22,386 bases of DNA from Exilibacterium sp. (GCA_037384225.1 JARROD010000145.1:1-22386), one strand, 5' to 3'. Positions 5,304 through 19,861 are shown, numbered from the stretch's first letter. Made by a program: numbers and translations. The notes: generated by a model from the letters alone, not told the origin.

Positions 5304-6005
5304 TCAAACGCTTTGGTATACCCTATCCTTGCATAAATTTTCGAGCTCAGGACCTTTTAGAGCGGTATTTTCAGGGGCGCGCGCAGATTTTTCTAACCGG
5401 AGCATAGCTATCCCTATGTGAGGATTAGAAAAATTGAGCACGACCCTGAAAATGCGTTTTCTGACACGTTCGTATCGTCGGGTTTTCGCCGTCAGCAGTG
5501 CGCAAATAACCCCCGCAACAGCGCCAAACAAATGCGATTCAAATGAAACGCCGGGTCTTCCCGGCAAAACACCGTAGAACATACCACCGTAAAAGAAAAT
5601 GACAAAAACGGCAATGACAATATTGATAAACCGGTGGTCAAACCAGGCCATGGCTATTGTCAGGCTCCACAAACCGAATATCCAGCCACTGGCGCCAATG
5701 TGAATCGCCGGGCGAGCAAACAGCCAAACCATCAAACCGGTTAAGGTGATGATTATAAAACTGCTCCACAGGTAAAACTTTATTCCCCGCAACAGACACA
5801 GGCCGCTGAAAACCATCAGCCCAATCAGGTTATTGACCAGGTGGGCGGTGTTTCCATGTAATAAGGGGGCAGAATAAATATGGGGGAGCGTTTCAACAAC
5901 CCGGGGAAAAATACCGAACCGGGAAAGTTGGTAGCCGGTAAATATATTCAAAAAATGTATGCCACTGATCACAGCGGCCAAGATGAGCAAAACTCTGATT
6001 TTCAA
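5304..6005 (-). CDS. Rhomboid-family intramembrane serine protease (GlpG-like).
   Basis: Rhomboid signatures are present: HGNTAHLVNNL (the HxxxxHLxxN motif), the catalytic GASGWIFGL (GxSG) and a TM6 His in HLFGAVAGV. The protein is polytopic and hydrophobic. The start is a TTG preceded by CGGAGTG, and this start is needed to include TM1/TM2. Confidence 0.85.
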   Translation of the reverse strand: MKIRVLLILAAVISGIHFLNIFTGYQLSRFGIFPRVVETLPHIYSAPLLHGNTAHLVNNLIGLMVFSGLCLLRGIKFYLWSSFIIITLTGLMVWLFARPAIHIGASGWIFGLWSLTIAMAWFDHRFINIVIAVFVIFFYGGMFYGVLPGRPGVSFESHLFGAVAGVICALLTAKTRRYERVRKRIFRVVLNFSNPHIGIAMLRLEKSARAPENTALKGPELENLCKDRVYQSV

Positions 6006-6093: not shown

Positions 6094-9000
6094 TTATTCA
6101 CTTGCTTTTTTAACTTCATCAACGACTGAATTGACGGTTTTATTAGCACTCTTTTTACCCACTGTGACACTCGTTTCCAAGCTGCGCAGTTGTGCGGAAA
6201 TATCTTTCATTTTATCGTGGGTGCGCAAATCTATCTCAAGCTTTTTATCCATACTGCGAACCAGTGGAAATATACTGTGTTCAATCGTTTCCGCCAGAAC
6301 GCGCAGCAGCTTATCCATGCCGGGCACCGGTTGATTAACGACTTCAACATTGGGTTTGTTGACCGCCACCAGTTTAACCAGTTTTTCCAGCGCCAGTGTT
6401 ACCGATGTCAGTTCACTTTCCGCCGCCGGTTGCTCAGCGCTTCGTTGCGACTGTAACAGCAACCCTTTGCTGATATGGGTGAGACTCTGTACACCTTCAG
6501 CCATATCCTTCAACTGCACCACGATCTTGCCCGCTACGTCGGCATCATCGCCCCCCATCGCTTTGTTACGCAAAAAATCCTTTTTTATCTCTCCCCAGCG
6601 ACTTTGCTCGGCAGCGGTCATATTTCCGCGCAGCTCTGCCAACTTCAGAAGATTTTCCTCGGCTCCCGATGTCAGCAGTTGCGATTCACCAATATAGTGA
6701 TCCTCAATCATTTGCATCAGTTCCCGCTCATTCATGACCGCCGACACTTTTTCCGCCATTTTGTTCATATTGCGGTAACTGCCCTGCAGTTTGAACGGCG
6801 GCTCGGTACGGTATTTATCACTTTGCGCCGCCGAGGCAATATACTGCTGGTTAATGTTCAACACCACACGCTGAACCTTAAACAGCATGCGCAAGACAGC
6901 CGTGATTTCGTTGATTTCCGCCCCGCTGTACTGGTGCGACAAGTTAGTGGTGGTGACTTCTTCCGCCCTGGCCATGTCTATCAGTTTGTAGATATCGCTC
7001 ATGTCCCGCGTTGCCAAAGGCGCAAGCACGGGATTAGACGTTAGACAGTTTTCTATATAACTCAAGGAGAACTGCTCATCCATACCACCGAGTACATCCC
7101 CCAGATTATAAATATCCGCACGGTTGGCCAGCATGTCCGGAATTTTAAAGACTTGCCCGGATTCCGTATAAGGGTTGCCGGCCATAACCACACAGAATTT
7201 TTTCCCCCGCATATCGTAGGTTTTTGTTTTGCCTTTCCAGACACCTTCGATACGCCGGGTTCCATCACATAGTGATATAAACTTCTGTAGAAATTCCGGG
7301 TGGGTATGCTGAATATCGTCCAGATACAACATCACATTGCTGCCCATTTCCAGCCCGAGATTCAGCTTTATCAGTTCCTGCCGCGCCGTAGCATTGGGCG
7401 CTTGCTCAGGGTCGAGTGAGAGCACTTCGTGGCCCAGCGAAGGACAGTTGATTTTCATAAAAATCAGCCCCAGGCGGTTGGCAACGTATTCCATCAGCGT
7501 TGTCTTGCCGTATCCGGGCGGGGAAATCATCATCAAAAGCCCCATCAAATCCGTGCGTCTGCTTTCACCGACACTACCCACCTGTTTGGCCAGGTTATCA
7601 CCGATGATGGGCAGATAGGCTTCGTCGATTAGGCGGTTGCGTACAAATGAACTCAAGGGTTTTGGCTTGAGCTCTTCCAGACGCAGTTTTTCCCGTTCCC
7701 GCTGTACTATCTCCTGGCGAACCTGTAGGTATTTATAAAAGTTCGGCACATACACATCACGATGTTGTTCCATGCGCTGCCAATATTCATCCACGGCGAG
7801 GTTGAGCTGACGATTGCCGATAGTGGGATGTTCACCCAGCAAGCCATCGATCTGCAGTTCCAGATCGGTTTCGGTAGCGCGTCTATCGATGCGTTGATCA
7901 CCGTTGATAAGCGCCACCGCTTCAGGAATATAACGCCGCAAAGCCTGCAGGTTTTTATTCTCGACCAACGCCACCAACCACGCCGAGGTCAGGTTCCAAC
8001 GCTCATCCGGGCGCCCCTGCAGTTTTTCGAGCGCGACACTGTATTGCCGCCAGGTATCAGTATCGAGCGCCCGCTTTAGCTCATCGACCAGCCGCTGGGC
8101 GTATTTACTGCCGACAAACGCGGTACGCTCCCGCTCCAGTTCGGCCACCAGGTAGCGCGCCGCACGACTGATATCCGCTTCACTCACCGCAATAGGGTAG
8201 TGCTCAAAAAACACCGTCAGCGCTTTGCGGACCTCCGTCACCAGCAGATCGCTGGCATCACCGCTGGAAAAATGCTGCTGCATCAGCGCCGCCGACCGCG
8301 CGCGTTGCGTCCAGGTTTCATATCGTGACTGCCAGTGTTCGCGCTTCGAGCCATGGCGGCGCTCCACCTCCGCGAGCATTTTCGTTGGCGACGGCGAAAC
8401 CACTGTATTCGGCAGATTGTTCAACAGTTTAATATTGGCCCAGAACACCTGCGCCAAACCGCGGCACAATGGGTCAAAGCAGAGTAAGTCTGCACTGTCG
8501 ATGGCAGGTACCAGGCTGCTTAGGATGCGCGTCGCATCGTGATCGTGAATGCCTTTTTCATAAGCTTCTTTATAGCGTGGGGCGGCAAAGTCAGACACCA
8601 GTCTATCCAGTTTTCCCTGATCCCTGAGTGACTCCCGCAGCAGCGTCAGAGACAGGCCGTGGCGACCGTCGCGGGCTGCATCCAGTATCAACCAGGCCAG
8701 GTATTCGGCGCGGTAAACTGTTGCGCTTTCCGATTCCAGCGAGACATCCCAGTAGTCTTTTAAAGCCAAGAGGTCCGGGTGCGTTATCTGTTCGAAATAA
8801 TCCGTGCCGATCAAATGTGTGTAGAGCTTGCCCTCCCGCGGTATTATCGTCAAATCCAGTTCCTGCATATTGACACTGAATTTGTGCCTCGGACCCAGCT
8901 TGATAACCCGGCCGCCGTCCTCAAAAATATCGCTTTTATCCCGCAGCCCCCGCAGTGCCTGATCTTTTATCGCGTTGAAACGCGACTCCACATCGTCGGC

Positions 9001-11532
9001 TTTGACGGCGCTATCAAGTGCCCGCAGCTGTAGCACCAGCTCACGGATTTTCAATACCAGCGTATCGGAGGCAAAGTAGGTGTTTAGTTCATCGACTGCG
9101 GTGAATTTCAACGAGCGGCGCTCTATGCTCGCCAACATGCGCGCACAGGCATCGGCCACCGCTTGCGCTTTGCGCTGACGTTCGTCCAGCAACTGTTGTT
9201 TGTGGGATTCGAACGATTCGTAAACCTCCTCCCGCTTTTCCATAATATCGGCCAGAAACTGATCCTGGTCGCTGAACTGGCTCTCCAGCTCTTCGAGTTG
9301 CACCAACAAGCGGGACAGTTGTTCGTCGCATTTTTCCGGGGTTGAAGCCAACCCCAAAGCGTTGGTAATACTCTGGGTAAACAGTTTGAATTGTGCGGAG
9401 AATTGCGCCACAGCCTCCTTCGCACCCAGGCTTTTCCGCTTGTGCCTGGCCCCCGCCTTGCTTTGATTGAGCTTCGAATAAATCTCGGAAATGGAATCGA
9501 TAATACGCGTGCGAACAGTCGCATCCTGCACCTGCAGCGTTGTTACCAGTTCCGACAGCAAATCCAATCCGGCAGCCGTGGTTTCTATGTTTTCTATCAG
9601 CGGCGTCAGCACGGCGATGCTGTGTGCCACTTCGACTTCCCGGTTGAATCCGACGATTTTGTCCAAGTAAGGTGCCAAAGCCTGGTCGCCGGACAAAAAG
9701 GCGACTGTCTTTTCACTCAAATCAGTCTGCATTTCAGCCAATTGCCGATCCAGTGTTTCAATCCGCGCGGTGTCGATATAGCGCAGTTCCTTAATACTGA
9801 CAAGGTGGCCCCGCTGATGCCGGATGCGATCCAGAGCGGCGATATAGTCTTCCACCGATTCGCGATTTCCGGATTTCACGACACGCTCAATGGACTCCTG
9901 CTCGCGTTCGGCGGCGACCATGGCCTCGGCCGACTGCCCGCGAATGCTTTCGACTTTTTCAAACTCATCGATAACCAGCTCCGAGGTCGCGGCGATTTCC
10001 TTCAATAAATCACCGATACCATCGGTTTCCTGCTCCCCGATCCAGTAATAAGTATCAAACATCTTAGCGGCCGTCTTACCCAGTTCCTCGTACAGACGCA
10101 CATTAACTGCCGGGTTGTCGATGCGGCGGCAGATACTGTACAACTCGGAAATGCCGCGCACCAGCTCGGCGTTGCCTATACGACCAAAAAACGACTGGCT
10201 CACCGGTATCCTGCTGGCAAACTCCTCGCTCACAAATGGTGTATTCCAGATTTGCATAGGGTGAACCCGGGTCGGCTCACCTTCAGCGGTAAAAATGATC
10301 AGACGCCCCTCAGCCGACAGCGCATAACCGTGACTATAGATGGGGTTTTGTAAAGATTTTTGGATTAGGTTGTAGGCAAATAAGCCCACCACACCGCCTT
10401 GCGGTTCGTAAAACACATAGAGCACATCCTCACCGTTGGGCGAACGAATGCGCCTTTTGAATTTCACACCCGGCACTTGCTCGTCATAGGTTTTGTATTC
10501 CCCGGTTTGCAGGTAATAGCCACCCGGGAAAATTATCCCGTGATCCTCCGGCAACTGCACACAGGACTCGCCGATGGCATCGATCCGCAAAACGCTTTGA
10601 GTTAGTGTGTTGAATATCAAATAGCGCCAATCCTCTTCCCTATAAGGGCGAATTTTCAACAGAATCAGACACCCCACCGTAGCGTAAAAGACATCTGCAT
10701 CATCTAAAGACTGGGTTCTATCCTCGACCGGCTCGGTGTAAATGCCGAGACCGGTTTCCGTATTGTTTTCCACCTTTATCGTCAGGTTGCCACCGATCGT
10801 TTCAACAAAGATGCTGTCGAGAATATTGATATGGGGATGTCGGCCGTGCAAATTATCTTCCCGCGTCGTTTCGACCCATTCGAAATCATAGGCTGGAGGC
10901 AGTTGAATATCCCGTTCGCCGCGGTTGTCAATGTATTTGACGTCGCCACCGTCGGCCGACACCGACCAGCGAAAGACCCGGATATCGGTCAACCGTTCAC
11001 CGATCTGAAAGCCGGCCAGTAACTTTCCCTGATTGATCGACAACTGAATCAAGCGGGTATTTTTGTAATAGCGGTACAGCTCTTCAAAGTCATTGAGAAA
11101 CCCATTCTCGGATAAAAAACTTTCGCGCAGGGAAACAGGTTCCATTTCATAGCTTGTCTTCCCCCCCTCACCGGCACTTTCGCGAACCCGAAACAGGGAA
11201 AAAACATCTTCGACCCGGGTTTCTTTTTTCAAGCCGATAAAAACATTGTAACCGAACAGGAGCAATTCACCGACTTGAACAATATCTCTGGCGATGCAAT
11301 TGTTTTCTGTTCGCACCCTGACTCGACCGGCGACGCTCAGGTCAGATACACCGAACTCCTCCAACCGGGCTCGATTCAAATCGCGGGTTTTTGTATCCAG
11401 CCGCTTACCCTGCTCAACCAGACGTTTGCGGATAATTTCATAGGCTCCGCCTTCGGCGACCGCGCTGTCAACAACGTTATTGTCGGCCGTAGTATTACCA
11501 TCAACAGCGTCGAAAATTTCCTGCTGTGCCAT
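6094..11532 (-). CDS. Giant 1812-aa multi-domain protein with a MoxR/dynein-type (AAA_5-like) AAA+ ATPase domain near the C-terminus. The N-terminal region is beta-rich and the centre is a long alpha-helical/coiled-coil region. Function unknown.
   Basis: Walker A is ISPPGYGKTT (residues about 1337-1346, nt about 7498-7530). Walker B is VMLYLDDIQ. The CVVMAGNPYTESGQVFKIPDMLANRADIYNL segment resembles the AAA_5/MoxR sensor region. The 1812-codon ORF is uninterrupted and has a strong RBS (AAGGAAAC) 8 nt upstream. I saw no vWA/MIDAS motif and no N-terminal Walker A, so it is not SbcC/SMC-like. Confidence 0.85.
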   Translation of the reverse strand: MAQQEIFDAVDGNTTADNNVVDSAVAEGGAYEIIRKRLVEQGKRLDTKTRDLNRARLEEFGVSDLSVAGRVRVRTENNCIARDIVQVGELLLFGYNVFIGLKKETRVEDVFSLFRVRESAGEGGKTSYEMEPVSLRESFLSENGFLNDFEELYRYYKNTRLIQLSINQGKLLAGFQIGERLTDIRVFRWSVSADGGDVKYIDNRGERDIQLPPAYDFEWVETTREDNLHGRHPHINILDSIFVETIGGNLTIKVENNTETGLGIYTEPVEDRTQSLDDADVFYATVGCLILLKIRPYREEDWRYLIFNTLTQSVLRIDAIGESCVQLPEDHGIIFPGGYYLQTGEYKTYDEQVPGVKFKRRIRSPNGEDVLYVFYEPQGGVVGLFAYNLIQKSLQNPIYSHGYALSAEGRLIIFTAEGEPTRVHPMQIWNTPFVSEEFASRIPVSQSFFGRIGNAELVRGISELYSICRRIDNPAVNVRLYEELGKTAAKMFDTYYWIGEQETDGIGDLLKEIAATSELVIDEFEKVESIRGQSAEAMVAAEREQESIERVVKSGNRESVEDYIAALDRIRHQRGHLVSIKELRYIDTARIETLDRQLAEMQTDLSEKTVAFLSGDQALAPYLDKIVGFNREVEVAHSIAVLTPLIENIETTAAGLDLLSELVTTLQVQDATVRTRIIDSISEIYSKLNQSKAGARHKRKSLGAKEAVAQFSAQFKLFTQSITNALGLASTPEKCDEQLSRLLVQLEELESQFSDQDQFLADIMEKREEVYESFESHKQQLLDERQRKAQAVADACARMLASIERRSLKFTAVDELNTYFASDTLVLKIRELVLQLRALDSAVKADDVESRFNAIKDQALRGLRDKSDIFEDGGRVIKLGPRHKFSVNMQELDLTIIPREGKLYTHLIGTDYFEQITHPDLLALKDYWDVSLESESATVYRAEYLAWLILDAARDGRHGLSLTLLRESLRDQGKLDRLVSDFAAPRYKEAYEKGIHDHDATRILSSLVPAIDSADLLCFDPLCRGLAQVFWANIKLLNNLPNTVVSPSPTKMLAEVERRHGSKREHWQSRYETWTQRARSAALMQQHFSSGDASDLLVTEVRKALTVFFEHYPIAVSEADISRAARYLVAELERERTAFVGSKYAQRLVDELKRALDTDTWRQYSVALEKLQGRPDERWNLTSAWLVALVENKNLQALRRYIPEAVALINGDQRIDRRATETDLELQIDGLLGEHPTIGNRQLNLAVDEYWQRMEQHRDVYVPNFYKYLQVRQEIVQREREKLRLEELKPKPLSSFVRNRLIDEAYLPIIGDNLAKQVGSVGESRRTDLMGLLMMISPPGYGKTTLMEYVANRLGLIFMKINCPSLGHEVLSLDPEQAPNATARQELIKLNLGLEMGSNVMLYLDDIQHTHPEFLQKFISLCDGTRRIEGVWKGKTKTYDMRGKKFCVVMAGNPYTESGQVFKIPDMLANRADIYNLGDVLGGMDEQFSLSYIENCLTSNPVLAPLATRDMSDIYKLIDMARAEEVTTTNLSHQYSGAEINEITAVLRMLFKVQRVVLNINQQYIASAAQSDKYRTEPPFKLQGSYRNMNKMAEKVSAVMNERELMQMIEDHYIGESQLLTSGAEENLLKLAELRGNMTAAEQSRWGEIKKDFLRNKAMGGDDADVAGKIVVQLKDMAEGVQSLTHISKGLLLQSQRSAEQPAAESELTSVTLALEKLVKLVAVNKPNVEVVNQPVPGMDKLLRVLAETIEHSIFPLVRSMDKKLEIDLRTHDKMKDISAQLRSLETSVTVGKKSANKTVNSVVDEVKKASE

Positions 11533-11692
11533 AGTAGTTTCCTTTATCAGTTCTGCACCGAATATCGGGAATTGCCTTAGAAATACCCTCTACTCATCAA
11601 TCAACAACAGAGATCGGCATCGTCGCCCGGGTCCGTCGAAAACTCCGTTATCGGACTCGGTCAATCAGCTACTGTCAGCAACATGCCGGCAG

Positions 11693-11762
11693 GGCTTTGT
11701 TCATCGTTTCGCCCACCTAAGGTGCTAACCGAGCCGGTCCGAGGAGGCGAAACGATGAACAA
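11693..11762. repeat. Hairpin repeat element, copy 1. It forms a complete 70-nt hairpin and shares a 59-nt identical core with the copy at 17373-17431.
   Basis: The stem arms TTGTTCATCGTTTCGCC (11697-11713) and GGCGAAACGATGAACAA (11746-11762) are exact reverse complements. The loop is CACCTAAGGTGCTAACCGAGCCGGTCCGAGGA. The element lies between the flotillin stop codon and the giant-ATPase start codon. Confidence 0.8.
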
Positions 11763-11781
11763 CGCCGCCGGCAGGATATGC

Positions 11782-13761
11782 TCAGGCACTCACATTCTCC
11801 TCTTGAACGGTAAAACTCTCTGGCGCACTGTTATCCACCCCGTTGCCTTTGTTGTTGATGAATTTATCCAGCAGTGCGGTTACTGTTCCGCTCTTTGTGG
11901 CCAGCCCATCGACGGCTTTACCCAGTGACAGCGATTTGGCGAAGGTATCGAAGAAGTGCCCTTCGCCACCGACAATATCGATATGCGCTTTTTCCAGCGC
12001 AGTAGCGAGAACGTCCGCGTTTTCCCTGGCGACATCCTTGCCGGCTTCAATGGATGCAAGTGCTTCCTTAAGCGAGGTTTCCAGGCTCATGCGGAATTCT
12101 TCATGCTCGCGAGCCTTATCACTCATCGACCCCATAGCGTCGAATTTCTCGTTCAAACCATCAGCCTCGGCTTTAAACTGCTCCCGGGTGACCTGAGCCG
12201 CCGCCAAACCTACTTGCTTCTGAGCACTGGCTTCGGATTCACCTTTTGCGCCTATAACTGCCGCCTCGGCCAGTCCCACCTCACGCTGAGCGCTGGCCTC
12301 GGATTCACCCTTGGCGGCAATCACCCTGGCTTGCGCCATTCCTTCTTTTTCCAGTGCATCGGCCCTCGCCTCCTTGACTTTGGCCTCGGCCAGCCCCGGC
12401 GCTGCGCGCTCGGCCTGAATGCCCTCGGCCAGCTTTTTCTTCGCATCCGCTTCTCTGGCCGCGGCTTCCAAACGCGCCTGGGCCATGGTAGTGACTTCGT
12501 TGGCTTTGAACTTGGCCGCCTGCTCTTCGGCTTCGGCGACTTTTATCTGCTTCACCTTCTCCTCTTCGGCCACAGCTTCCGCGGCCAGCACCTGCACCTG
12601 CTTCTGCCGGTCGGCTTCTGAAACCTCGCGGACCTCCTTGATCTTCTCTTCCTCCATCGCCACGGTTTTATCCACTGACACGCGATCGCGAATTACATTG
12701 GCAATTTCTTTTTTCTCCACTTCGATGGCTTTTTCCGCCTCTATCGTCTGCAGCTCCACTTCACGCTTGCGCGCAACCACCTCCAGTTCCCGCGCCCGGA
12801 TCACTTTTTCTTCCTCTATCGTCACCGCGCGCAGACGATTCTGTTGCGCCACTTCGATTTCGCGTTTCTGATTTTCCCGCTGAACCGCCAGCGTCTGATC
12901 GGACTGAATGGTGGCGGCTTCCGACTTCAAACGCTCCTCTTCCTGCACCTTTATTGTTTCCGCCTCTTCACGGGCGCGAAGCGAGGCAACCTCGCGCTGC
13001 TGGCGGGCTTCCGCATCCGCCTGTTGACGCTCCAACTCCAGCATTGCCTCAGCGGTTTCAACATTTTTCTTTTTAATAGCCAACTCCTCGTCGCGCTCAA
13101 GCATATTGGTGTGTACGTTTTGCCGCGCTGTTAGCTCGGTGATTTTCTTAATACCCTCGGCGTCGAGGATATTGCTGGGATCCAGGGATTTCTTCGGCGT
13201 CTGTTCCAGATAGTCGATCGCCACGTCCTCCAGGACATAACCATTGAGATCGTCACCGATCACCTCGATAATCTTTTCCCGAAAATGGAGACGGTTTTCA
13301 AACAGCTGTACAAACTCAATTTTTTTGCCCACGGTTTTCAGGGCTTCGGAGAATTTCGCGGCGAACAGTTGATCGACAGCAGCCTTATCCGACGCCCGGC
13401 TGGCGCCAATGGATTTGGCCACCTTTAAAACGTCTTCCGCTGTTTCATTGACACGAAGATAGAATGCGACGGTGATATCGGCACGCATATTGTCTTTGCA
13501 GATCAACCCATCACTGCCCCGGCGATCGACCTCCAGCGTAATCAGCGATATTTTCATCAGCTCTTTTTTGTTAATAATCGGATAAACCAACGCCCCGGTG
13601 AAATGCACCTTCGGTGTTGAACTCATATCGTTTACGATAAGTGCAGTCCCCTGCTCAACTTTCACATAAAAGGCTTTAAACAGTGCCCCCACGCCTAAAA
13701 GGATAATAAAAAAGATACCAATTCCCGTCGCTATGGGCGCTATTATTGAGATGTCAGCCAT
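11782..13761 (-). CDS. yqiK: Flotillin-like SPFH/band-7 inner-membrane protein of the YqiK family, 659 aa, with a long Ala/Glu-rich coiled-coil C-terminus.
   Basis: There is an N-terminal TM helix (IIAPIATGIGIFFIILLGVGALF). It is followed by an SPFH core, then an EA-rich heptad region, then a flotillin-type C-terminal tail. The protein is longer than E. coli YqiK (553 aa, from memory) because of internal repeats. Confidence 0.9.
   Translation of the reverse strand: MADISIIAPIATGIGIFFIILLGVGALFKAFYVKVEQGTALIVNDMSSTPKVHFTGALVYPIINKKELMKISLITLEVDRRGSDGLICKDNMRADITVAFYLRVNETAEDVLKVAKSIGASRASDKAAVDQLFAAKFSEALKTVGKKIEFVQLFENRLHFREKIIEVIGDDLNGYVLEDVAIDYLEQTPKKSLDPSNILDAEGIKKITELTARQNVHTNMLERDEELAIKKKNVETAEAMLELERQQADAEARQQREVASLRAREEAETIKVQEEERLKSEAATIQSDQTLAVQRENQKREIEVAQQNRLRAVTIEEEKVIRARELEVVARKREVELQTIEAEKAIEVEKKEIANVIRDRVSVDKTVAMEEEKIKEVREVSEADRQKQVQVLAAEAVAEEEKVKQIKVAEAEEQAAKFKANEVTTMAQARLEAAAREADAKKKLAEGIQAERAAPGLAEAKVKEARADALEKEGMAQARVIAAKGESEASAQREVGLAEAAVIGAKGESEASAQKQVGLAAAQVTREQFKAEADGLNEKFDAMGSMSDKAREHEEFRMSLETSLKEALASIEAGKDVARENADVLATALEKAHIDIVGGEGHFFDTFAKSLSLGKAVDGLATKSGTVTALLDKFINNKGNGVDNSAPESFTVQEENVSA
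12220..12351. repeat. Intragenic tandem duplication of about 66 bp (22 aa) x2 inside the flotillin coiled-coil region.
   Basis: The DNA units CTGAGCACTGGCTTCGGATTCACC... and CTGAGCGCTGGCCTCGGATTCACCC... are adjacent. They encode ...VIAAKGESEASAQREVGLAEA / AVIGAKGESEASAQKQVGLAAA. Confidence 0.7.
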
Positions 13762-13936
13762 AAAAGTTACTCCATTTCCGTTTTGAGTTAAGCCGCGACA
13801 TTAACTGCCCTTGTTATGCTAAGGGACGTGCACGAAATAACTTCCGGCCCCTTTATCAGTAATAAAAAGGGGTTTCGAGGCGCCCGTCTGGTGTCGTTGC
13901 GAAAACGCCGGCATAGTGGGCCTACGTCAAGTTTTC

Positions 13937-14626
13937 TTATTCTGAAAATTCTTCCACTGAGATCACCCGATAGGTATTCTGTGCTTTGATATATTCCAGC
14001 AAAACAACCCTATCACCTCTTTTAAACACCTGATCCCCAGTGCTGCGGACCTTCAATATCAACCCGGCGCCGCCATCGTCCAAAACCGCCTCGCCAAACG
14101 TTTTATCGACCCGCGATGTCCGCACCACCGCCACCTGCCCAAGCACCAGCTTCTGCGTATGCTGCTGCGCCTTTTTGAATAACGGCCGCAGCGGTCTTAT
14201 CACTACGGCAGTGATTTTGACGGCGATATACAAAGACCCCACCAGAACCGGTAACCCCAGTAAATAACGAAACAGCCCGGCGGTAATAGCGGCCGGCAAA
14301 CAGTATACGATGTAATAGCAGACGAGCCAGCCCACCAGCGAAACGATGGACACAATGACAGTAACAGGAACACCGTTGAGCCCAAACCGCAGCATTAAAC
14401 CCGCCAGGCCTTCGGCGTTGGAAAAACCAGTATCCTGGTTCACATCGAGGGCGCCATCCGCATCGGGAATATCGAAATCGAGTATATCCAGTTCCACCAG
14501 CCCCAGGATAGCCACCAGCCAATAGAGGACACAGACAGCCAGAATAAAAGTAAAAATGGCGGTGGGAAACGAGGAAATATTCTGATAGAAAGGATTCATT
14601 CCCTCACTTAAAAATAATGCAAACAT
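13937..14626 (-). CDS. yqiJ: YqiJ-like short NfeD-family inner-membrane protein, the usual partner of flotillin YqiK.
   Basis: The N-terminus and TM region resemble E. coli YqiJ (PFYQNISSFPTAIFTFILAVCVLYWLVAILG). Multiple TM helices are followed by a soluble C-terminal OB-fold-like tail ending ...VVLLEYIKAQNTYRVISVEEFSE. It sits immediately upstream of the flotillin gene, as in yqiJK. The RBS is AGGGGCAGGAT. Confidence 0.8.
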   Translation of the reverse strand: MFALFLSEGMNPFYQNISSFPTAIFTFILAVCVLYWLVAILGLVELDILDFDIPDADGALDVNQDTGFSNAEGLAGLMLRFGLNGVPVTVIVSIVSLVGWLVCYYIVYCLPAAITAGLFRYLLGLPVLVGSLYIAVKITAVVIRPLRPLFKKAQQHTQKLVLGQVAVVRTSRVDKTFGEAVLDDGGAGLILKVRSTGDQVFKRGDRVVLLEYIKAQNTYRVISVEEFSE

Positions 14627-14739: not shown

Positions 14740-15426
14740 TCATTTATCCTTTTTCAATCGCCTCAGAACATCATCGGCACTGCTGCCCCCGGGCGCGATA
14801 CCGGCTTTCTCTAAACGGGTCTGCAGGGAACCGTCTCCCTCCTCTTCGGCAAGCTCACTGGCCGCCTGCATTTGTGCCGCTTTCAATGCCTGTTTTTCCT
14901 TTATCCGCTCCAGCGAATCCATCGCCGTGCGCAACCTGGAGTTGGCACCACTGTGACGCTCCGCCACGGTCGCCTGCGCGCGCTGAACACTTTCCGTGGC
15001 CTTGACCGTATCCACCTGTTGCTTTAAGCGCTTAATATTGCCTTCCGCCAATTTAATCGCGGTGCGCAACTTACCCGCACTGGCGGCAAACTCGACACCA
15101 GTGCGCAACTCGCCGGCAAGTTGATTTTCCAGCCCGGCGACCTTTTTCGCCACTTCCCGAGCCAACTCCTCCTCGCGTTTGCCCAGTGCCTTTACAACAT
15201 AATCTTCGTGTTCGGCGATGTCCTTTTTCAGCTTCTGCGCCTTTTCTTCGGAAATTTTTTGTCTGGCAATAATAGCGGCGAGACTATCTTTTGATTGTTT
15301 CAGTTCTTCGGAAGCATCGCGCACTTCCTGATCGAGTATCCGCAGTGCCTGGCTGTCGACAATCGCCTCTCCCGCCTCATTTACGCCCCCACGCAAAGCG
15401 GTCATCATTTTCGCCCAAATATTCAT
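14740..15426 (-). CDS. yjfJ: PspA/IM30-family protein (the bacterial ESCRT-III-like family), YjfJ-type.
   Basis: The translation aligns by eye along its length with E. coli YjfJ (recalled from memory): ILDQEVRDASEELKQS, VDTVKATESVQRAQATV and LEKAGIAPGGSSADDVLRRLK match MLEQHIRDAKAELDKA, MEVVKATEAMQRAQQAV and LAEAGIGGSNKSSAQDVLARLQ. The RBS is AAGGA, 9 nt upstream. Confidence 0.9.
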   Translation of the reverse strand: MNIWAKMMTALRGGVNEAGEAIVDSQALRILDQEVRDASEELKQSKDSLAAIIARQKISEEKAQKLKKDIAEHEDYVVKALGKREEELAREVAKKVAGLENQLAGELRTGVEFAASAGKLRTAIKLAEGNIKRLKQQVDTVKATESVQRAQATVAERHSGANSRLRTAMDSLERIKEKQALKAAQMQAASELAEEEGDGSLQTRLEKAGIAPGGSSADDVLRRLKKDK

Positions 15427-15447
15427 AGCGTTAATCCTTAGGTTGAT

Positions 15448-15536
15448 AGCTTCTCAATAACCCGGGGGTAATTGTGCCTTCGATCCGACGGCCATCCGCC
15501 TGGCATTGTGCCCACCCCGGTTTATTGAGAAGTTAC
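15448..15536. repeat. Intergenic REP/MITE-like element, compact complete copy. Terminal inverted repeats CTTCTCAATAACCCGGGGG ... CCCCGGTTTATTGAGAAG flank a conserved core.
   Basis: The core GTGCCTTCGATCCGACGGCCATCCGCCTGGCATTGTGCC matches the ends of copy 1. The roughly 19-bp terminal inverted repeats are nearly perfect. The element fills the 110-bp gap between the yjfI-like stop and the pspA-like start. Confidence 0.8.
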
Positions 15537-16163
15537 TTAGGTTGCAAGGGTAATATTTAGAAATTCAGCATAGGCTTCCGTCGCCTGGATGACGTTGCTG
15601 GCCAGCACTTCGATTTCAAACACCACATTCGGCAGAATCGCGGTGGAACTCAAGGCGCCGAACATGTGGTAGTAGTCAGTCCCGTCCGGGGAAGTGTCCA
15701 GGCTCACAGTGGACAGGGGGAAGTATTTGTGCGTGCGTAGCACCGCCTCGTTAAAGCCGGCCCGGTCAATCACGTCGTCAACCGGCCAGAGGACGGCTTC
15801 GACGACAATCTGTTCTCCGGCAACCGTGAGAAAAACCGGCAAATCGCCGTATTCGTGCAAAACCATATGCAGTGAAGGCTCGACGCCCTCAATAAGCTCA
15901 AGGTCGGCCTCTTCACCACTGAACAGTTCGGTTTCCTTAAGTGCGGCATAGAGACCGGACGTTGTCCAGGCATGCATTGCATCGATCATGTGCGTGACTC
16001 CTTCTTCCGATTCAAGTCCGTTGGCGTCGCGAAGCCGCCTTTCCAGAACTGCAAGTTGCTTGGCGTATTCCGGGCGAATCCAAACTTCTTTCTTTACCAA
16101 CCCCTTTTCACGCAGGCGACGTCTAAACTCGCGTTGATAGTATGCCGATGATTTTTTGCTCAT
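15537..16163 (-). CDS. yjfI: YjfI-like DUF2170 protein with an additional basic N-terminal extension of about 58 aa.
   Basis: The C-terminal DYYHMFGALSSTAILPNVVFEIEVLASNVIQATEAYAEF matches E. coli YjfI (EYYIVFGALSLKSSLEDILLEITSLVDNALDLAEITEEY, from memory). The gene is directly upstream of the yjfJ homologue, as in E. coli. The N-terminal residues KKSSAYYQREFRRRLREKGLVKKEVWIRPEYAKQLAVLERRLR are absent from E. coli YjfI. The RBS is weak, and an internal start at MIDAMHAW is possible. Confidence 0.75.
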   Translation of the reverse strand: MSKKSSAYYQREFRRRLREKGLVKKEVWIRPEYAKQLAVLERRLRDANGLESEEGVTHMIDAMHAWTTSGLYAALKETELFSGEEADLELIEGVEPSLHMVLHEYGDLPVFLTVAGEQIVVEAVLWPVDDVIDRAGFNEAVLRTHKYFPLSTVSLDTSPDGTDYYHMFGALSSTAILPNVVFEIEVLASNVIQATEAYAEFLNITLAT

Positions 16164-16180
16164 AGAGGTAAAGATAAATT

Positions 16181-16295
16181 ATCACATGTAAGCTGTCAAC
16201 AAATCACATGTAACGATTTGTAATAATTACATGTAATTTAATAGAGGGGTTGCAATGCGCGGCGACCTATAGCAAACAGCGTTTGCTATAGGTCG
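16181..16295. promoter_or_regulatory. Candidate operator/UAS region upstream of the yjfI-like gene. It contains three phased TTACATGT(A/G)A sites and a perfect 15-bp inverted repeat.
   Basis: The ACATGT cores lie at 16184-16189, 16206-16211 and 16229-16234, spaced 22 and 23 bp apart. The third site, TTACATGTAA, is a perfect 10-bp palindrome. CGACCTATAGCAAAC-agc-GTTTGCTATAGGTCG at 16263-16295 has perfect 15-bp arms. The sites lie 20-130 bp upstream of the ATG at 16163. Confidence 0.5.
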
Positions 16296-16304
16296 AAGCC
16301 TGGT

Positions 16305-16358
16305 AGCTTCTCAATAACCCGGGGTATTGTAGCGTCGATCCGGCGGCCAACTCAGAAG
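16305..16358. repeat. Partial copy of the REP/MITE-like element (left arm plus core), in inverted orientation.
   Basis: AGCTTCTCAATAACCCGGGGTATTGTAGCGTCGATCCGGCGGCCA matches the left half of the element at 15448-15536. It lies between the pspF-like stop codon and the yjfI regulatory region. Confidence 0.65.
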
Positions 16359-16408
16359 TCTCGCTGGGCTTTTCCCAGACCGAGGACGGTGGGATGGGGC
16401 GAAAAGGA

Positions 16409-17347
16409 TTATTGGTTGGTGTAGCCATGGGAAATATTAAGCATTTTTATACGATTGTAGAGTGTGCGTTTCTGGATATGCAGCTCATTGACCACTTTTT
16501 GTATAGTGCCGCCGTGGCGGGTGAGCGAATTTTCAATCAATACTTTTTCCACCCTCTTTAATCTTTCTTTCAAGGGGACGGTGATAAGACTCTGGCCAAA
16601 GCCGGATTCGGGAAGCGGCATCAAACCGAGGACAAAACGTTCTGCGGAGGCCTTCAATTCCCGATAGTTGCCCGGCCAGTTGTGACAAAGCAGGCTGTGC
16701 TGAACGACTTCATCGGCTTCAATCTGCGCGCGTTTGTGTTTTGCGCAGGCCTCCAATACAAAAGCATTAAACAGCGGAACAATCACTTCAGGTCTAGCTC
16801 GCAGTGCGGGCAACTGGATTTTTACAACACTCAAACGATAATACAGATCCCTCCGGAATTTTTTCTGCTCAACCAAATTTTCAAGTGGAATTTTCGTTGA
16901 CACAATAACCCGCATATCGACCGGTATAAAGTGTGTCGACCCCAGGCGCTCCACTCCCCGGCTTTCTAAAACTCTCAACAACTTCGCCTGCATTGTCAGC
17001 GACATGCTGTCAATTTCGTCCAGATAAAGTGTACCCTTGTTCGATGCTTCCACGTAACCGCAGCGGGACTTTTGCGCCCCAGTAAAAGCACCCGAGACGA
17101 CGCCAAACAATTCACTTTCCGCCAAAGACTCAGGTATTGCTGCACAGTTTACAGCGACGAATTCACCACTGCGACGGGATACCTCATGTATTTTTCGCGC
17201 CACCGTATGTTTCCCTGCCCCTGTTTCACCCTCGATAACGAGGTCCACTTGGGCAGCCCCCACTTCGTTGATAATTGTCCTTATTTGAGAAAACGTATCT
17301 GACTCACTTTGCGCCGGACGAGCATTGTCAACAAAGGATAACGTCAT
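16409..17347 (-). CDS. pspF: PspF-like sigma54 enhancer-binding protein. It has an AAA+ sigma54-activation domain and a C-terminal Fis-type HTH, and no N-terminal receiver or sensor domain.
   Basis: Walker A is GETGAGKH (about residue 45). The sigma54-contact GAFTGA motif, ESELFG, an arginine-finger region and a C-terminal HTH (TIQKVVNELHIQKRTLYNRIKML) are present. The domain layout is that of E. coli PspF. The ORF track starts at 17362 (MEFLIM...). The ATG at 17347 (MTLSF) has a proper GGAG Shine-Dalgarno 9 nt upstream, so I prefer it. Confidence 0.85.
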   Translation of the reverse strand: MTLSFVDNARPAQSESDTFSQIRTIINEVGAAQVDLVIEGETGAGKHTVARKIHEVSRRSGEFVAVNCAAIPESLAESELFGVVSGAFTGAQKSRCGYVEASNKGTLYLDEIDSMSLTMQAKLLRVLESRGVERLGSTHFIPVDMRVIVSTKIPLENLVEQKKFRRDLYYRLSVVKIQLPALRARPEVIVPLFNAFVLEACAKHKRAQIEADEVVQHSLLCHNWPGNYRELKASAERFVLGLMPLPESGFGQSLITVPLKERLKRVEKVLIENSLTRHGGTIQKVVNELHIQKRTLYNRIKMLNISHGYTNQ

Positions 17348-17372
17348 GATTAAAAACTCCATAGAAAAGTTA

Positions 17373-17431
17373 GGCTTTGTTCATCGTTTCGCCCACCTAA
17401 GGTGCTAACCGAGCCGGTCCGAGGAGGCGAA
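17373..17431. repeat. Hairpin repeat element, copy 2. The 59-nt core is identical to 11693-11751 but the right stem arm is missing.
   Basis: GGCTTTGTTCATCGTTTCGCCCACCTAAGGTGCTAACCGAGCCGGTCCGAGGAGGCGAA is identical to copy 1 in the same orientation. It sits 11 bp upstream of the pspF-like ORF start at 17362. Confidence 0.8.
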
Positions 17432-17805: not shown

Positions 17806-17869
17806 GTGCTTTCGATTCGGTTGATGTCCGCCTGACATTGTGTCTACCCGCGGTTATTGAAAGGGTTAC
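17806..17869. repeat. Degenerate partial copy of the REP/MITE-like element (core plus right arm).
   Basis: GTGCTTTCGATTCGGTTGATGTCCGCCTGACATTGTGTCTACCCGCGGTTATTGAAAGGGTTAC aligns with the right half of copy 1 (…TCCGCCTGACACTGTGCCTGCCCCGGGTTATTGAGAAGTTAC). It overlaps the stop codon of the clan-CD peptidase. Confidence 0.6.
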
Positions 17870-19311
17870 TCAATAAATCCTTCTTCGCATTCCTGCAAGA
17901 TTTGGCGCTGACTTTTTTCCTTCTCGGTAGCATAGCGTTCAAACCATTTTTCAAGTCTGGCTAACTTTTTCATTCTGAATATTTTGTCTACCTGCGTGAC
18001 AGTCCTTACCAAATCCAGCGCTTCCTGCTGCATCTGCAAATAACGCTGTTGCGATTCCACCAACACCTGATATTTCGGGTAGGCAATTATTTGCCCTTGG
18101 ATATCCTCCAGATCATTAGAAATGGTACGCTGGTACTCATAGGTGTAGGGATTAAATAATTCCGGCCAGTGGGATCTGAGCCGGGACTGAATGTCGTATT
18201 GCGTCTGTTCTATTTGTCGCAGTAACTGGTGCATCGCCGTATTTTGATCCGAGATCCGCTGTTGTAAGTGTGCTTTTTCCTTCAGCAACGTTTGCGCATC
18301 CAGCGTCCAACCGTTTCTGGTTGCGACAGTTTCGGCTATTTTCCAGTACTCACTTTGCTTGTTTTCTACCGCACTGTCCCAACGCAAATACCACGGTTGC
18401 CATTGTTCCAGATAGGTTTCACTGGTCGCCCGGGAGAGGTCGCTGCTGAGGGCATTGCGTAGTGTATATAAATGAGCTTCACGAAGGCTGACTTTGTGGT
18501 CCCCATTCAAATCCGGATCGCCCTCCAGCGCCGTGCCCAGACGCGACTGCCCATTGAGCGCGGCAAAAAAGTAGGTGGTGTAATCGCGAAACTCGGCCTT
18601 ATTGACGCCAAGGTCACACCCCTCAGCCTGGCGCCACGCCGATTCCGCCATAAAGCCGCAGCGCGGTTGTCGGGAAAATTCTGAGGAAAAAGGGCTTTCG
18701 TAGATCAGTTTATGAAAAGCGCCAGAATAACATTGTGTCAATACAAACCTGACTGTGGTTTCAGGCGGAGCCTTGTCCAATAACTCATCGAGTTCACTGA
18801 CCGTTAGTTTTTCATCACCCCAGAGTTTTAAATAGTTCTTATTAACATCATCGTCGTTGATACCGCCGTGACCATTGTAAATCAACAGGATATCGTCCCG
18901 GCCCGACAAGGCGGCAAAATCCCTTGTCAATCCACGCTCCAACGATGATTTATCAGTACCGCCTTTCACACGGGAAAGTTCATGCGTTTTATACCTGATT
19001 CCATTGTCACCGATGCCTGTGAAAACCCTCGCCAGAGGCTGCAAAAATTCAACCGACTCTTCTCTGGGAGCCCAGTAAGCGACGTCCTTGGTACCCGACA
19101 GACCAGCGCTGTAATAAGTGCTCAAGGCGGCGCCCTGTCCCTGCAACAATTGTTCGAGCCAGCTGACGTTTTGTTCAATTTGCCCCTGGGAGTTTTCAAT
19201 ATGATTGCCACCGCCGATTAACCATACTTTGGTTGTGGCAACTGTGGCGACAGGCATCCCCAGGGCGAGGACCGTGAGGCTTTTCACAAGTGTCTTCATT
19301 TTCTGTCTCAT
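17866..19311 (-). CDS. Secreted clan-CD cysteine peptidase (caspase/legumain-like, C13/C14-type His-Cys dyad) with a C-terminal helical/coiled-coil domain.
   Basis: There is a signal peptide (MKTLVKSLTVLALGMPVATVA). The catalytic-dyad motifs are LIYNGHGG and, about 46 residues later, LTQCYSGAF (the HG...Cx[S]G pattern typical of clan CD). The start overlaps the upstream membrane-protein stop in an ATGA. Confidence 0.7.
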   Translation of the reverse strand: MRQKMKTLVKSLTVLALGMPVATVATTKVWLIGGGNHIENSQGQIEQNVSWLEQLLQGQGAALSTYYSAGLSGTKDVAYWAPREESVEFLQPLARVFTGIGDNGIRYKTHELSRVKGGTDKSSLERGLTRDFAALSGRDDILLIYNGHGGINDDDVNKNYLKLWGDEKLTVSELDELLDKAPPETTVRFVLTQCYSGAFHKLIYESPFSSEFSRQPRCGFMAESAWRQAEGCDLGVNKAEFRDYTTYFFAALNGQSRLGTALEGDPDLNGDHKVSLREAHLYTLRNALSSDLSRATSETYLEQWQPWYLRWDSAVENKQSEYWKIAETVATRNGWTLDAQTLLKEKAHLQQRISDQNTAMHQLLRQIEQTQYDIQSRLRSHWPELFNPYTYEYQRTISNDLEDIQGQIIAYPKYQVLVESQQRYLQMQQEALDLVRTVTQVDKIFRMKKLARLEKWFERYATEKEKSQRQILQECEEGFIE

Positions 19312-19805
19312 GACGCAGCACTATTCCTTTGCCCGATCGCCAGTACCGAGTAGCGGATTGCAAACCATAGACAGGCCGCCGCATACACAAGCACGATCAT
19401 CTGGGCCACTCCCAGCAGCACCAACACCAACAGACTCCCCCCCAAAACCAGCCAGGGTAAAAACGGCATCAGCAACCCGGTAAGCCGGGCACCGTGGTAG
19501 AATATGAGTGCGCCGCCAAAAGCGGCTGCACACAACGGTGCCGCCGCCTTCCAGTCGCTCAGCAGTTGCAACAGGAGACGGCGCCTGGAGTCGAATAAAA
19601 GCAGGCGCATAAACTCAGCATCGCCCCGGAACCAGTCGAGCCCTATTTGCACCACGACGGCCGTGGGGTAAATTGCTACAATGCACACAATCAAGGTTAG
19701 TATTCTCAAAACCATACTCATTTCGGCGCGATTTTGCTGATCATGGATTTGTTGGCATTGTTCATCGTGCCGCCCACCAACAGTGCCAACCGATCCGGCG
19801 GTCAT
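19308..19805 (-). CDS. Small hydrophobic membrane protein of unknown function.
   Basis: Several TM helices are evident. The stop codon overlaps the peptidase start (ATGA at 19308-19311). The start is uncertain: an internal ATG at 19721 (MSMVLRIL) begins the first TM helix, and the upstream 28 residues are polar with no Shine-Dalgarno. Confidence 0.55.
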   Translation of the reverse strand: MTAGSVGTVGGRHDEQCQQIHDQQNRAEMSMVLRILTLIVCIVAIYPTAVVVQIGLDWFRGDAEFMRLLLFDSRRRLLLQLLSDWKAAAPLCAAAFGGALIFYHGARLTGLLMPFLPWLVLGGSLLVLVLLGVAQMIVLVYAAACLWFAIRYSVLAIGQRNSAAS

Positions 19806-19861
19806 CCGAAGGCGCAGCCAATGTGCTGATACCGGTGAATTAACAGCAGAGATGATACAGC

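Follow-up and report, generated by a model that had tools for sequence, protein, structure and literature searches.

Introduction

The closest described systems are the operons in which Ravi et al. (2024) found a CesT/Tir-PspA combination together with a band-7/flotillin gene, a novel AAA+ ATPase gene and a YqiJ/YuaF gene; shorter operons of flotillin and YqiJ, with or without the ATPase, are more widespread, and a gene for an HKD phospholipase D is occasionally present (PMC11237479). In Pseudomonas aeruginosa, reverse transcription PCR (RT-PCR) revealed a continuous transcript running from bacA through PA14_16190 (bacE) to PA14_16200, including the bacD-bacE junction, and in a bacA mutant the proteins BacB to BacF were all increased by 6- to 13.5-fold, BacE by 8.9-fold (PMC10948618). 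The operon of this species affects biofilm formation and virulence. Here we analyzed a 22,386-nucleotide stretch of DNA from Exilibacterium sp. (GCA_037384225.1 JARROD010000145.1:1-22386; this whole stretch is called the window hereafter) and in particular one gene on its minus strand (6094-11532), which encodes an AAA+ ATPase of 1812 residues.

The window has in common with P. aeruginosa bacABCDEF the gene order DUF2170, PspA, NfeD-like, flotillin, ATPase and a downstream gene. The Pseudomonas loci compared below show the identical order, with 56-59% identity between the ATPases, and by synteny and annotation the window ATPase is the counterpart of BacE (PA3728 / PA14_16190). The family is in Pfam, Ravi et al. 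(2024) described the operon and predicted its role, and a named, co-transcribed bacE has been published as well; this is a known but uncharacterized kind of protein, and the window gene itself represents no new kind of system. Ravi et al. (PMC11237479) neither assigned the ATPase to a clade nor reported a structure or counts for it; these are supplied here. New in the present analysis are an assignment to the MoxR clade at the level of the fold, a Walker B motif with two aspartates (DD), counts that set linkage to flotillin against linkage to PspA, and a case against the product name under which the family is annotated. We consider, with a probability of about 0.6, that the protein is a soluble remodeling ATPase for a flotillin-NfeD scaffold, to which PspA is accessory.

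Family membership and distribution

The gene is a single uninterrupted open reading frame (ORF), which starts with ATG and has an AAGGA ribosome-binding site 8 nt upstream of it, as expected from the initial annotation, made from the sequence alone, of a 1812-aa protein at this position. The same annotation called the protein orphan-looking and could not place it in a named family, and both views have to be given up. Pfam DUF3686 covers residues 45-496 (E = 7.2e-202, 671 bits against a cut-off of 25, profile positions 2-448 of 448), and Pfam DUF7902 covers residues 617-701 (E = 1e-25, 90 bits against a cut-off of 26). When 5.8 billion proteins were searched and 8000 candidates scored, more than 6000 full-length homologue clusters (at 90% identity) were obtained. 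The best 120 clusters come from Cellvibrionaceae, Oceanospirillales and their relatives, which places the window in a marine gammaproteobacterium of this group; they are all full-length, with 1750-1830 aa and 65-71% identity, except for the cluster of the window protein itself, which has 99% identity; a Nocardiopsis orthologue used as query retrieved an equally dense set of actinomycete homologues. At 65-71% identity, homologues 1600-1830 aa long align with 97-100% of the query; the aligned homologue set lies at 33-54%. The N-terminal domain alone matched 738 clusters at 50% identity (E <= 0.001), and those matches that are not evidently fragments are 1500-2000 aa long, which indicates that the architecture is fixed.

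Relatives are present in at least 588 species-representative genomes. Collinear homologues (45-71% identity, at least 97% of the length aligned) were found in Gamma-, Beta- and Zetaproteobacteria, Myxococcota, Actinomycetota, a metagenome-assembled genome (MAG) of Clostridia and Thermoanaerobaculia. Judged from these comparisons, the ATPase belongs to a widespread BacE family, which is made up of DUF3686, DUF7902 and one AAA+ module of the MoxR clade.

Homologues carry the label "DNA repair ATPase" in RefSeq and, in some records of the Joint Genome Institute (JGI), "MoxR-like ATPase". If the RefSeq label were right, the DUF3686 protein would be a DNA-repair ATPase, and the initial annotation had itself stated that a match to a characterized DNA-repair family would contradict its proposal. 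By name there is such a match: PA14_16190 has been given the same annotation in one paper (PMC8855297), and the Pfam description of DUF3686 reads "ATPase involved in DNA repair". The DUF3686 family, however, is not a characterized one. The literature searched does not mention "DUF3686", PF12458 is in none of the papers listed for it, and "DNA repair ATPase" is tied neither to an experiment nor to flotillin. Moreover, Pfam and NCBIfam detected no DNA-binding, nuclease, SMC or ABC-type domain, sequence and profile searches of the PDB matched the AAA P-loop only and no repair protein beyond it, and the identified conserved neighbours are membrane proteins or act at membranes. A role in DNA repair is hardly credible on this evidence, and we rejected it as an annotation artefact, the literature searches yielding no experimental source. 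The label is probably an inherited and wrong annotation; as a genome-wide product name it is misleading, and its correction would be of practical value.

Architecture of the protein

Two AlphaFold models were built from a 94-sequence alignment, one of residues 1-1150 (mean predicted local distance difference test score, pLDDT, 83.8) and one of residues 1101-1812 (mean pLDDT 80.5). Their layout agrees with the beta-rich N-terminus, the about 800 mostly helical residues and the one AAA+ core that had been proposed. In the models, an N-terminal helix (residues 15-60) is followed by a beta-rich domain (about 66-430), very long helices (436-867), a small beta unit (876-915), helices again to about residue 1300, the alpha/beta core of the AAA+ module (about 1330-1480), and a helical lid with the C-terminal domain to about 1640; the helical tail after this point has lower pLDDT. 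The tail was originally taken to be about 320 residues long and Lys-rich. Its richness in lysine was confirmed for the last 172 residues (11% Lys in 1641-1812, against about 5% in the rest of the protein), but residues 1481-1640 form the conserved lid and C-terminal domain, which are among the best conserved parts of the ATPase, and the variable tail amounts to only about 170 residues.

A further, degenerate AAA module N-terminal to the core was ruled out, as residues 900-1330 are modelled as helical with a small sheet only; since the five-stranded parallel sheet is absent upstream of the core, the description as a single AAA+ module is correct. No transmembrane segment was predicted for the ATPase, and because no window of 19 residues reaches transmembrane hydrophobicity, the protein is expected to be soluble.

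In a Foldseek search with the model of residues 1-1150, the beta-propellers of the clathrin terminal domain, prolyl oligopeptidase, WD40 proteins and IFT-A were matched (E 1e-6 to 1e-4), with template modelling scores (TM-scores) of about 0.1 because only the propeller superposes. A membrane-coat-like (protocoatomer) architecture, to which the matches with clathrin heavy chain, IFT-A, Nup and ROD would point, was rejected: these matches are driven by the propeller, and the helical part consists of long helices of coiled-coil type and not of a solenoid.

AAA+ module and clade assignment

Conservation of the AAA+ module was analyzed among 36 diverse homologues, down to 33% identity. Invariant in all of them are Walker A (SPPGYGKT, with K1343), D1405, D1406, N1453, R1471, R1575 and R1587. 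N1453 is sensor 1 and lies in an invariant G-N-P-Y. R1471, in PDMLANRAD (where P-D-M-L is invariant too), closes the helix that precedes strand 5; this is the place of the arginine finger, for which R1471 is a candidate. R1587, in Q-G-S-Y-R at the start of a lid helix, occupies the sensor-2 position and is a candidate sensor 2; it is found together with R1575 in the invariant motif YRTEPPFxLQGSYRNMNK of the C-terminal helical domain. The second Walker B position is Glu in none of the 36 sequences, so that the whole family has DD here and not the usual Asp-Glu (DE). The motif, LYLDDIQH, resembles the DnaA-type "IDDIQ" motif.

The core belongs to the MoxR clade and not to the classical clade, as far as sequence and model can tell. 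Among the AAA models of Pfam, AAA_5 alone extends over the whole core (positions 2-128 of 139), while AAA (PF00004) aligns with about 40 residues round the P-loop only, and the closest solved folds are those of the MoxR-family proteins NorQ and CbbQ, at a sequence identity of 12-16%. The single MoxR/AAA_5-type core of the initial annotation is thereby borne out. A pre-sensor-1 beta-hairpin (strands 1427-1432 and 1435-1440) is modelled between helix 1412-1423 and strand 1447-1452; classical-clade AAA proteins such as Vps4, p97 and FtsH have no such hairpin. The long helix 1537-1569 ahead of R1587 is, from its position in the model alone, consistent with a pre-sensor-II insert. Between strand 2 and helix 2 there is a conserved 18-residue loop, GPxLGHxVxSLDPxxAP, which is not modelled as a hairpin and contains no aromatic-hydrophobic-Gly motif of the kind that forms an aromatic pore loop.

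Gene linkage across related loci

The linkage set was composed of the 80 best-scoring among more than 588 related loci in species-representative genomes and of the window, 81 loci altogether. ORFs were called and then searched with iterated profiles of the window's neighbours, and the count for flotillin was limited to the 74 loci with at least 2.5 kb upstream. In each of these loci (74/74), the gene immediately preceding that of the ATPase encodes flotillin and has the same orientation, the spacer measuring 100 bp in the median; in 70 of 71 loci, an NfeD-like gene comes before the flotillin gene. PspA and DUF2170 genes occur in 39 of 71 loci, all of them in Proteobacteria and paired in every case (39/39), on the same strand in 35 loci and divergent in 4; they were not found in the loci of Myxococcota, Actinomycetota, Clostridia, Xenorhabdus and Stenotrophomonas, among others. 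These counts make flotillin and NfeD the invariant partners of the ATPase and PspA an add-on, in agreement with the widespread abbreviated operons of Ravi et al. (PMC11237479).

The counts also bear on an analogy drawn at the outset, when the ATPase was compared with Vps4 acting on ESCRT-III and a check for flotillin or PspA neighbours was suggested. A remodeling role tied to the membrane neighbours is reasonable and is in print (PMC11237479), and the co-occurrence is complete for flotillin, but for PspA it is restricted to 39 of 71 loci, which leaves the PspA half of the analogy the weaker one. Taken literally, that half says that the ATPase disassembles or recycles the PspA polymer as its primary substrate and that flotillin is a mere platform. 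Such a role would suit the PspA and DUF2170 genes in the window's own gene string and the 35 same-strand pairs, as well as the joint rise of all six Bac proteins in the P. aeruginosa bacA mutant (PMC10948618); a 2025 review knows no Vps4-like ATPase for bacterial PspA, so that the niche is open (PMC7619361), and Ravi et al. suggest ESCRT-like roles for PspA-linked AAA+ proteins. However, PspA is absent from 32 of the 71 loci and flotillin is never absent, and the pair is divergent in four. Nor does the protein look like Vps4, since its core is of the MoxR clade with a pre-sensor-1 hairpin, it has no aromatic pore loop, and Pfam finds no MIT domain in it, the N-terminus being a helix and then a beta-propeller. 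That PspA is the primary substrate appears rather improbable to us.

Clustering of the neighbours at the 81 loci yielded flotillin, NfeD-like, PspA, DUF2170, rhomboid, PLDc_2, TelA, Zn-ribbon and one 252-aa family. Of 74 loci, 12 have a rhomboid gene 3' of the ATPase gene and in the same orientation; a gene for a PLDc_2 (HKD) protein follows the ATPase gene in 15 loci; TelA and a 252-aa protein without assigned family occur in 11-12 Xanthomonadales loci, and a small gene for a double TFIIB-type zinc ribbon is placed between the flotillin and ATPase genes in at least eight (L034 15775-16464, L045 16065-17210 and L034 9188-9559 are examples of these extra genes). Save for the one unassigned 252-aa protein of Xanthomonadales, the identified conserved neighbours act at the membrane.

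Some of these neighbours might be read as clients. The ATPase would then be a MoxR-style maturation factor for which the flotillin-NfeD microdomain serves as a workbench, where client membrane proteins are folded, inserted or extracted and flotillin itself is left untouched, as with FtsH inside HflK/C or with NorQ and CbbQ on their enzyme targets. The closest folds, NorQ and CbbQ, are indeed maturation or activation factors of enzyme complexes, and the lineage-specific HKD/PLD hydrolase (15 loci), TelA (12) and rhomboid (12-16) could be clients or co-factors; flotillin microdomains of Staphylococcus aureus are reported to stabilise unfolded proteins (PMC11222466). But no candidate client is conserved in all loci, where only flotillin and NfeD are found, and a VWA adaptor is missing. 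The present observations are compatible both with this explanation and with remodeling of the scaffold itself; of the two, we regard the former as unlikely.

Copies of the module are carried by the megaplasmid pQBR103 and by linear plasmids of Streptomyces, and one may ask whether it is an anti-phage or other conflict system that is partly plasmid-borne; the HKD/PLD-family gene 3' of the ATPase gene in 15 loci and the mobile or toxin-antitoxin-like genes in the spacer at a few loci would go with that idea. In PADLOC-DB 2.0 there is no match for the ATPase, flotillin, NfeD-like, DUF2170 or rhomboid proteins, and PspA gives only weak coiled-coil matches (E 0.003 or worse). Unlike fast-evolving defence islands, the gene is chromosomal, syntenic and conserved at full length across orders. 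A conflict system is accordingly very improbable.

The spacer between the flotillin and ATPase genes holds unrelated genes in three loci, which shows that the pair tolerates separation. These inserts are two tandem copies of a 306-311-aa protein (L021, 8030-9930), a set that by sequence reading comprises an alpha/beta hydrolase, a 512-aa protein and a small nucleotidyltransferase-like protein with its partner (L030, 6518-9959), and large secreted proteins (L079, 3602-9965). On pQBR103 (L084, NC_009444.1, 2010-15214), genes for YjfI, PspA, rhomboid, DUF2491, DUF350, DUF1190 and glutathionylspermidine synthase lie on one strand, and the same string continues into NfeD-like, SPFH and "DNA repair ATPase" genes, i.e. 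a polyamine-type yjf operon is fused with the flotillin-ATPase module.

A contig of a MAG (L001) carries flotillin, ATPase and rhomboid genes near-identical to those of the window, with 99% identity between the ATPase proteins. The homology ends exactly at the stop codon of the NfeD-like gene (window 13871-13936), and past this breakpoint HAD hydrolase, LacI and GGDEF/EAL genes are found instead of NfeD, PspA, BacA and PspF. The 66-bp breakpoint sequence is present twice in the contig (7689-7864, 21649-21714). Either the DNA was genuinely rearranged at this repeat or the MAG is misassembled.

Proposed role of the ATPase

For a soluble remodeling ATPase acting on a flotillin-NfeD scaffold, we infer ring assembly, ATPase activity, substrate and direction of remodeling as follows. 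The AAA+ modules would form a ring, by analogy with the MoxR proteins NorQ and CbbQ. The propeller and the stalk may provide in cis the adaptor function that a separate VWA protein provides in MoxR systems, and could attach the motor to the assembly of flotillin and NfeD. With ATP turnover, the flotillin oligomer would then be opened, disassembled or reset, or a client bound in it extracted. The pair of PspA and the DUF2170 chaperone that is added in many Proteobacteria, the source of the window among them, might couple the scaffold to membrane-stress response or repair. The topology fits such a role, because the ATPase has no transmembrane segment and flotillin, which is anchored in the membrane and faces the cytoplasm, has one at its N-terminus. 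The initial annotation had made its proposal depend on expression of the gene together with its neighbours; the counterpart in P. aeruginosa is co-transcribed with them and co-induced 8.9-fold (PMC10948618), and co-transcription is probable in the window.

Several points weigh against the scaffold-remodeling role. The DD Walker B, which all the homologues share, may mean slow hydrolysis or a behaviour as nucleotide switch. The lack of an aromatic pore-loop motif gives no indication of threading, and no VWA partner was seen among the Pfam-scanned representatives of the neighbour ORF clusters from the 81 loci. Deletion of paFlo3, the flotillin gene of strain PA14, gives mild phenotypes only (PMC13086221). 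In the L001 contig no NfeD, PspA or BacA gene stands beside the flotillin gene, and in the window a hairpin (described below) lies between the flotillin and ATPase genes, whose co-transcription there is deduced. Finally, the sampling of the best 80 loci biases the linkage statistics towards Proteobacteria.

As the agent that disassembles or resets bacterial flotillin/SPFH and PspA assemblies, the BacE family is an obvious candidate in view of its link to flotillin and NfeD in at least five phyla, the invariant residues of its nucleotide site and the co-regulation in P. aeruginosa. A more specific version, which we put forward tentatively and rate below even odds, is that BacE-type proteins are the missing ATP-driven remodeling machine of bacterial membrane scaffolds, a MoxR ring with fused propeller and stalk adaptors that opens or disassembles cytoplasmic flotillin domes and, where PspA occurs, hands over to its polymers or recycles them. 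If this were true, they would be functional counterparts of Vps4, NSF or the uncoating ATPases from a different AAA+ clade, and thousands of "DNA repair ATPase" annotations would be wrong. For experiments, flotillin-NfeD and not PspA is indicated as the primary partner, and the MoxR clade together with the DD Walker B suggests which mutants to make.

Other features of the window

The coordinates of the features are compiled in Table 1.

Table 1. Features of the ATPase gene and its surroundings in the window (positions in nucleotides; strand as given, "." for none).
Feature	Position	Strand	Basis
BacE-family (DUF3686) AAA+ ATPase gene, 1812 aa	6094..11532	-	ORF, translation, Pfam DUF3686/DUF7902/AAA_5
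DUF3686 domain, residues 45-496: N-terminal helix, then beta-propeller	10045..11400	-	Pfam; pLDDT ~85-95; Foldseek
Long-helix (coiled-coil-like) stalk, residues 436-867	8932..10227	-	AlphaFold helices of 40-58 residues
DUF7902 within the stalk, residues 617-701	9430-9684	-	Pfam, E = 1e-25
AAA+ alpha/beta core, residues ~1330-1480	7093..7545	-	Walker A/B, hairpin, sensor-1, candidate arginine finger
Walker A SPPGYGKT, residues 1337-1344	7501-7524	-	Invariant in 36 homologues
Walker B LYLDDIQH, D1405/D1406	7306-7335 (residues 1400-1409)	-	Invariant Asp-Asp
AAA+ lid and conserved C-terminal helical domain, residues 1481-1640	6613..7092	-	Conservation; modelled helices
Variable helical tail, residues 1641-1812	6097..6612	-	11% Lys, poor family consensus, lower pLDDT
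Rhomboid-family intramembrane protease, bacF position by Pseudomonas gene order	5304..6005	-	Pfam Rhomboid, E = 2e-18
Inverted-repeat element of ~86 bp in the flotillin-ATPase spacer, like repetitive extragenic palindromes (REP) or miniature inverted-repeat transposable elements (MITE)	11681..11766	.	Absent from L001 and L002
Flotillin/SPFH membrane scaffold, 659 aa, one N-terminal transmembrane segment; counterpart of BacD / PaFlo3	11782..13761	-	Annotated homologues
NfeD/YqiJ-like protein with several transmembrane segments, 229 aa; counterpart of BacC	13937..14626	-	Synteny, literature, transmembrane segments
PspA/IM30 (bacterial ESCRT-III-like); counterpart of BacB, accessory module	14740..15426	-	Pfam PspA_IM30, E = 3e-45
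DUF2170/YjfI-family CesT-like protein; counterpart of BacA	15537..16163	-	Pfam DUF2170; NCBIfam BacA equivalog
PspF-like sigma-54 activator without N-terminal sensory domain	16409..17362	-	Pfam Sigma54_activat, E = 9e-61; HTH_8

Homologues of the window flotillin at 50% identity are annotated as "flotillin family protein" or "SPFH domain-containing protein", and the Pfam Band_7/SPFH model does not match it even at E <= 10. Pfam likewise found nothing at E <= 0.01 in the ATPase-linked flotillins of Limnobaculum and Nocardiopsis (L012 7594-9771; L080 7863-9908), and this flotillin subfamily seems to escape the Band_7/SPFH model. Within the ATPase-linked flotillins, the only set compared, a C-terminal block IDIVGGEGxFFxxFAKSLSxGK is conserved and followed by a variable tail; as a docking motif it was judged uninformative, since only ATPase-linked flotillins entered the comparison. 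The NfeD-like protein has a weak match to Pfam YqiJ_N (E = 0.15), and PA14_16160 has been termed a short NfeD (PMC13086221). The DUF2170 protein reaches 321 bits with the NCBIfam BacA equivalog (cut-off 300). The rhomboid gene begins 88 nt 3' of the ATPase gene in the window; in the Pseudomonas loci the two overlap by 4 nt. Upstream of the PspF-like gene, a 481-aa protein (17866-19311, minus strand) has a signal-peptide-like N-terminus and no Pfam match.

The spacer between the flotillin and ATPase genes is 249 nt long in the window, and its 86-bp element is an insertion relative to two loci, L001 and L002, with 98.6-99.1% DNA identity to the window. A 59-nt core of the element recurs with 100% identity at 17373-17431, just upstream of the PspF-like gene, and a copy of 64% identity is found at 19754-19812. 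In the mRNA the element would fold into a hairpin (-41.8 kcal/mol) that has no U-tract, and a terminator scan of the spacer gave no terminator-like site; read-through from the flotillin to the ATPase gene is likely. Attenuation by the hairpin is possible and could suit a low ratio of ATPase to flotillin. Intergenic repeats of a second family share the core CCCCGGGTTATTGAGAAGTTAC and are present at 132-179, 15489-15536 and 17821-17868, with an inverted copy at 15443-15467 and another occurrence at about 16300-16325; they occupy several spacers within the bac-like operon as well as the window edge.

A sigma-54 promoter has been proposed upstream of P. aeruginosa bacA, but none is detectable in the window: no -24/-12 site (TGGCAC-N5-TTGC, at most 2 mismatches) occurs in 16164-16408, and the upstream regions of the DUF2170 genes, which 39 loci possess, share no conserved site either. 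The PspF-like gene adjoins the operon in the window and in none of the other 80 loci, which makes this a lineage-specific adjacency, and since no convincing sigma-54 site was found, sigma-54 control is not claimed for the window despite this neighbour. What does precede the DUF2170 gene is a sigma-70-like site, TTGACA-17-TATCTT. It is overlapped by three direct TTACATGTRAT repeats at intervals of 22-23 nt (16181-16236, minus strand), and a perfect palindrome, CCTATAGCAAAC-GC-GTTTGCTATAGG, is located further upstream (16266-16292). Judged from their sequence, the repeats and the palindrome are candidate operator sites for a regulator.

Comparison with known systems

Compared with the MoxR proteins NorQ, CbbQ and RavA, BacE-type proteins share the clade but differ in several respects. 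They are about 1800 aa long against about 260-500 aa, they have no VWA partner gene, their Walker B is DD where MoxR proteins have DE, and they are fused to a large N-terminal beta-propeller and a helical stalk. With Vps4/CdvC on ESCRT-III they have in common an AAA+ gene beside a gene of the ESCRT-III superfamily (PspA), and remodeling of a polymer is plausible for both; the MIT domain and the aromatic pore loop are absent from BacE-type proteins, however, and their linkage to PspA is facultative (39/71). FtsH with HflK/C is similar in that an AAA+ ATPase is associated with an oligomeric SPFH scaffold at the inner membrane (PMC13220708). FtsH is a membrane-anchored protease of the classical clade, enclosed by a periplasm-facing cage, whereas BacE-type ATPases are predicted to be soluble, lack a protease domain and go together with an SPFH protein of flotillin type.

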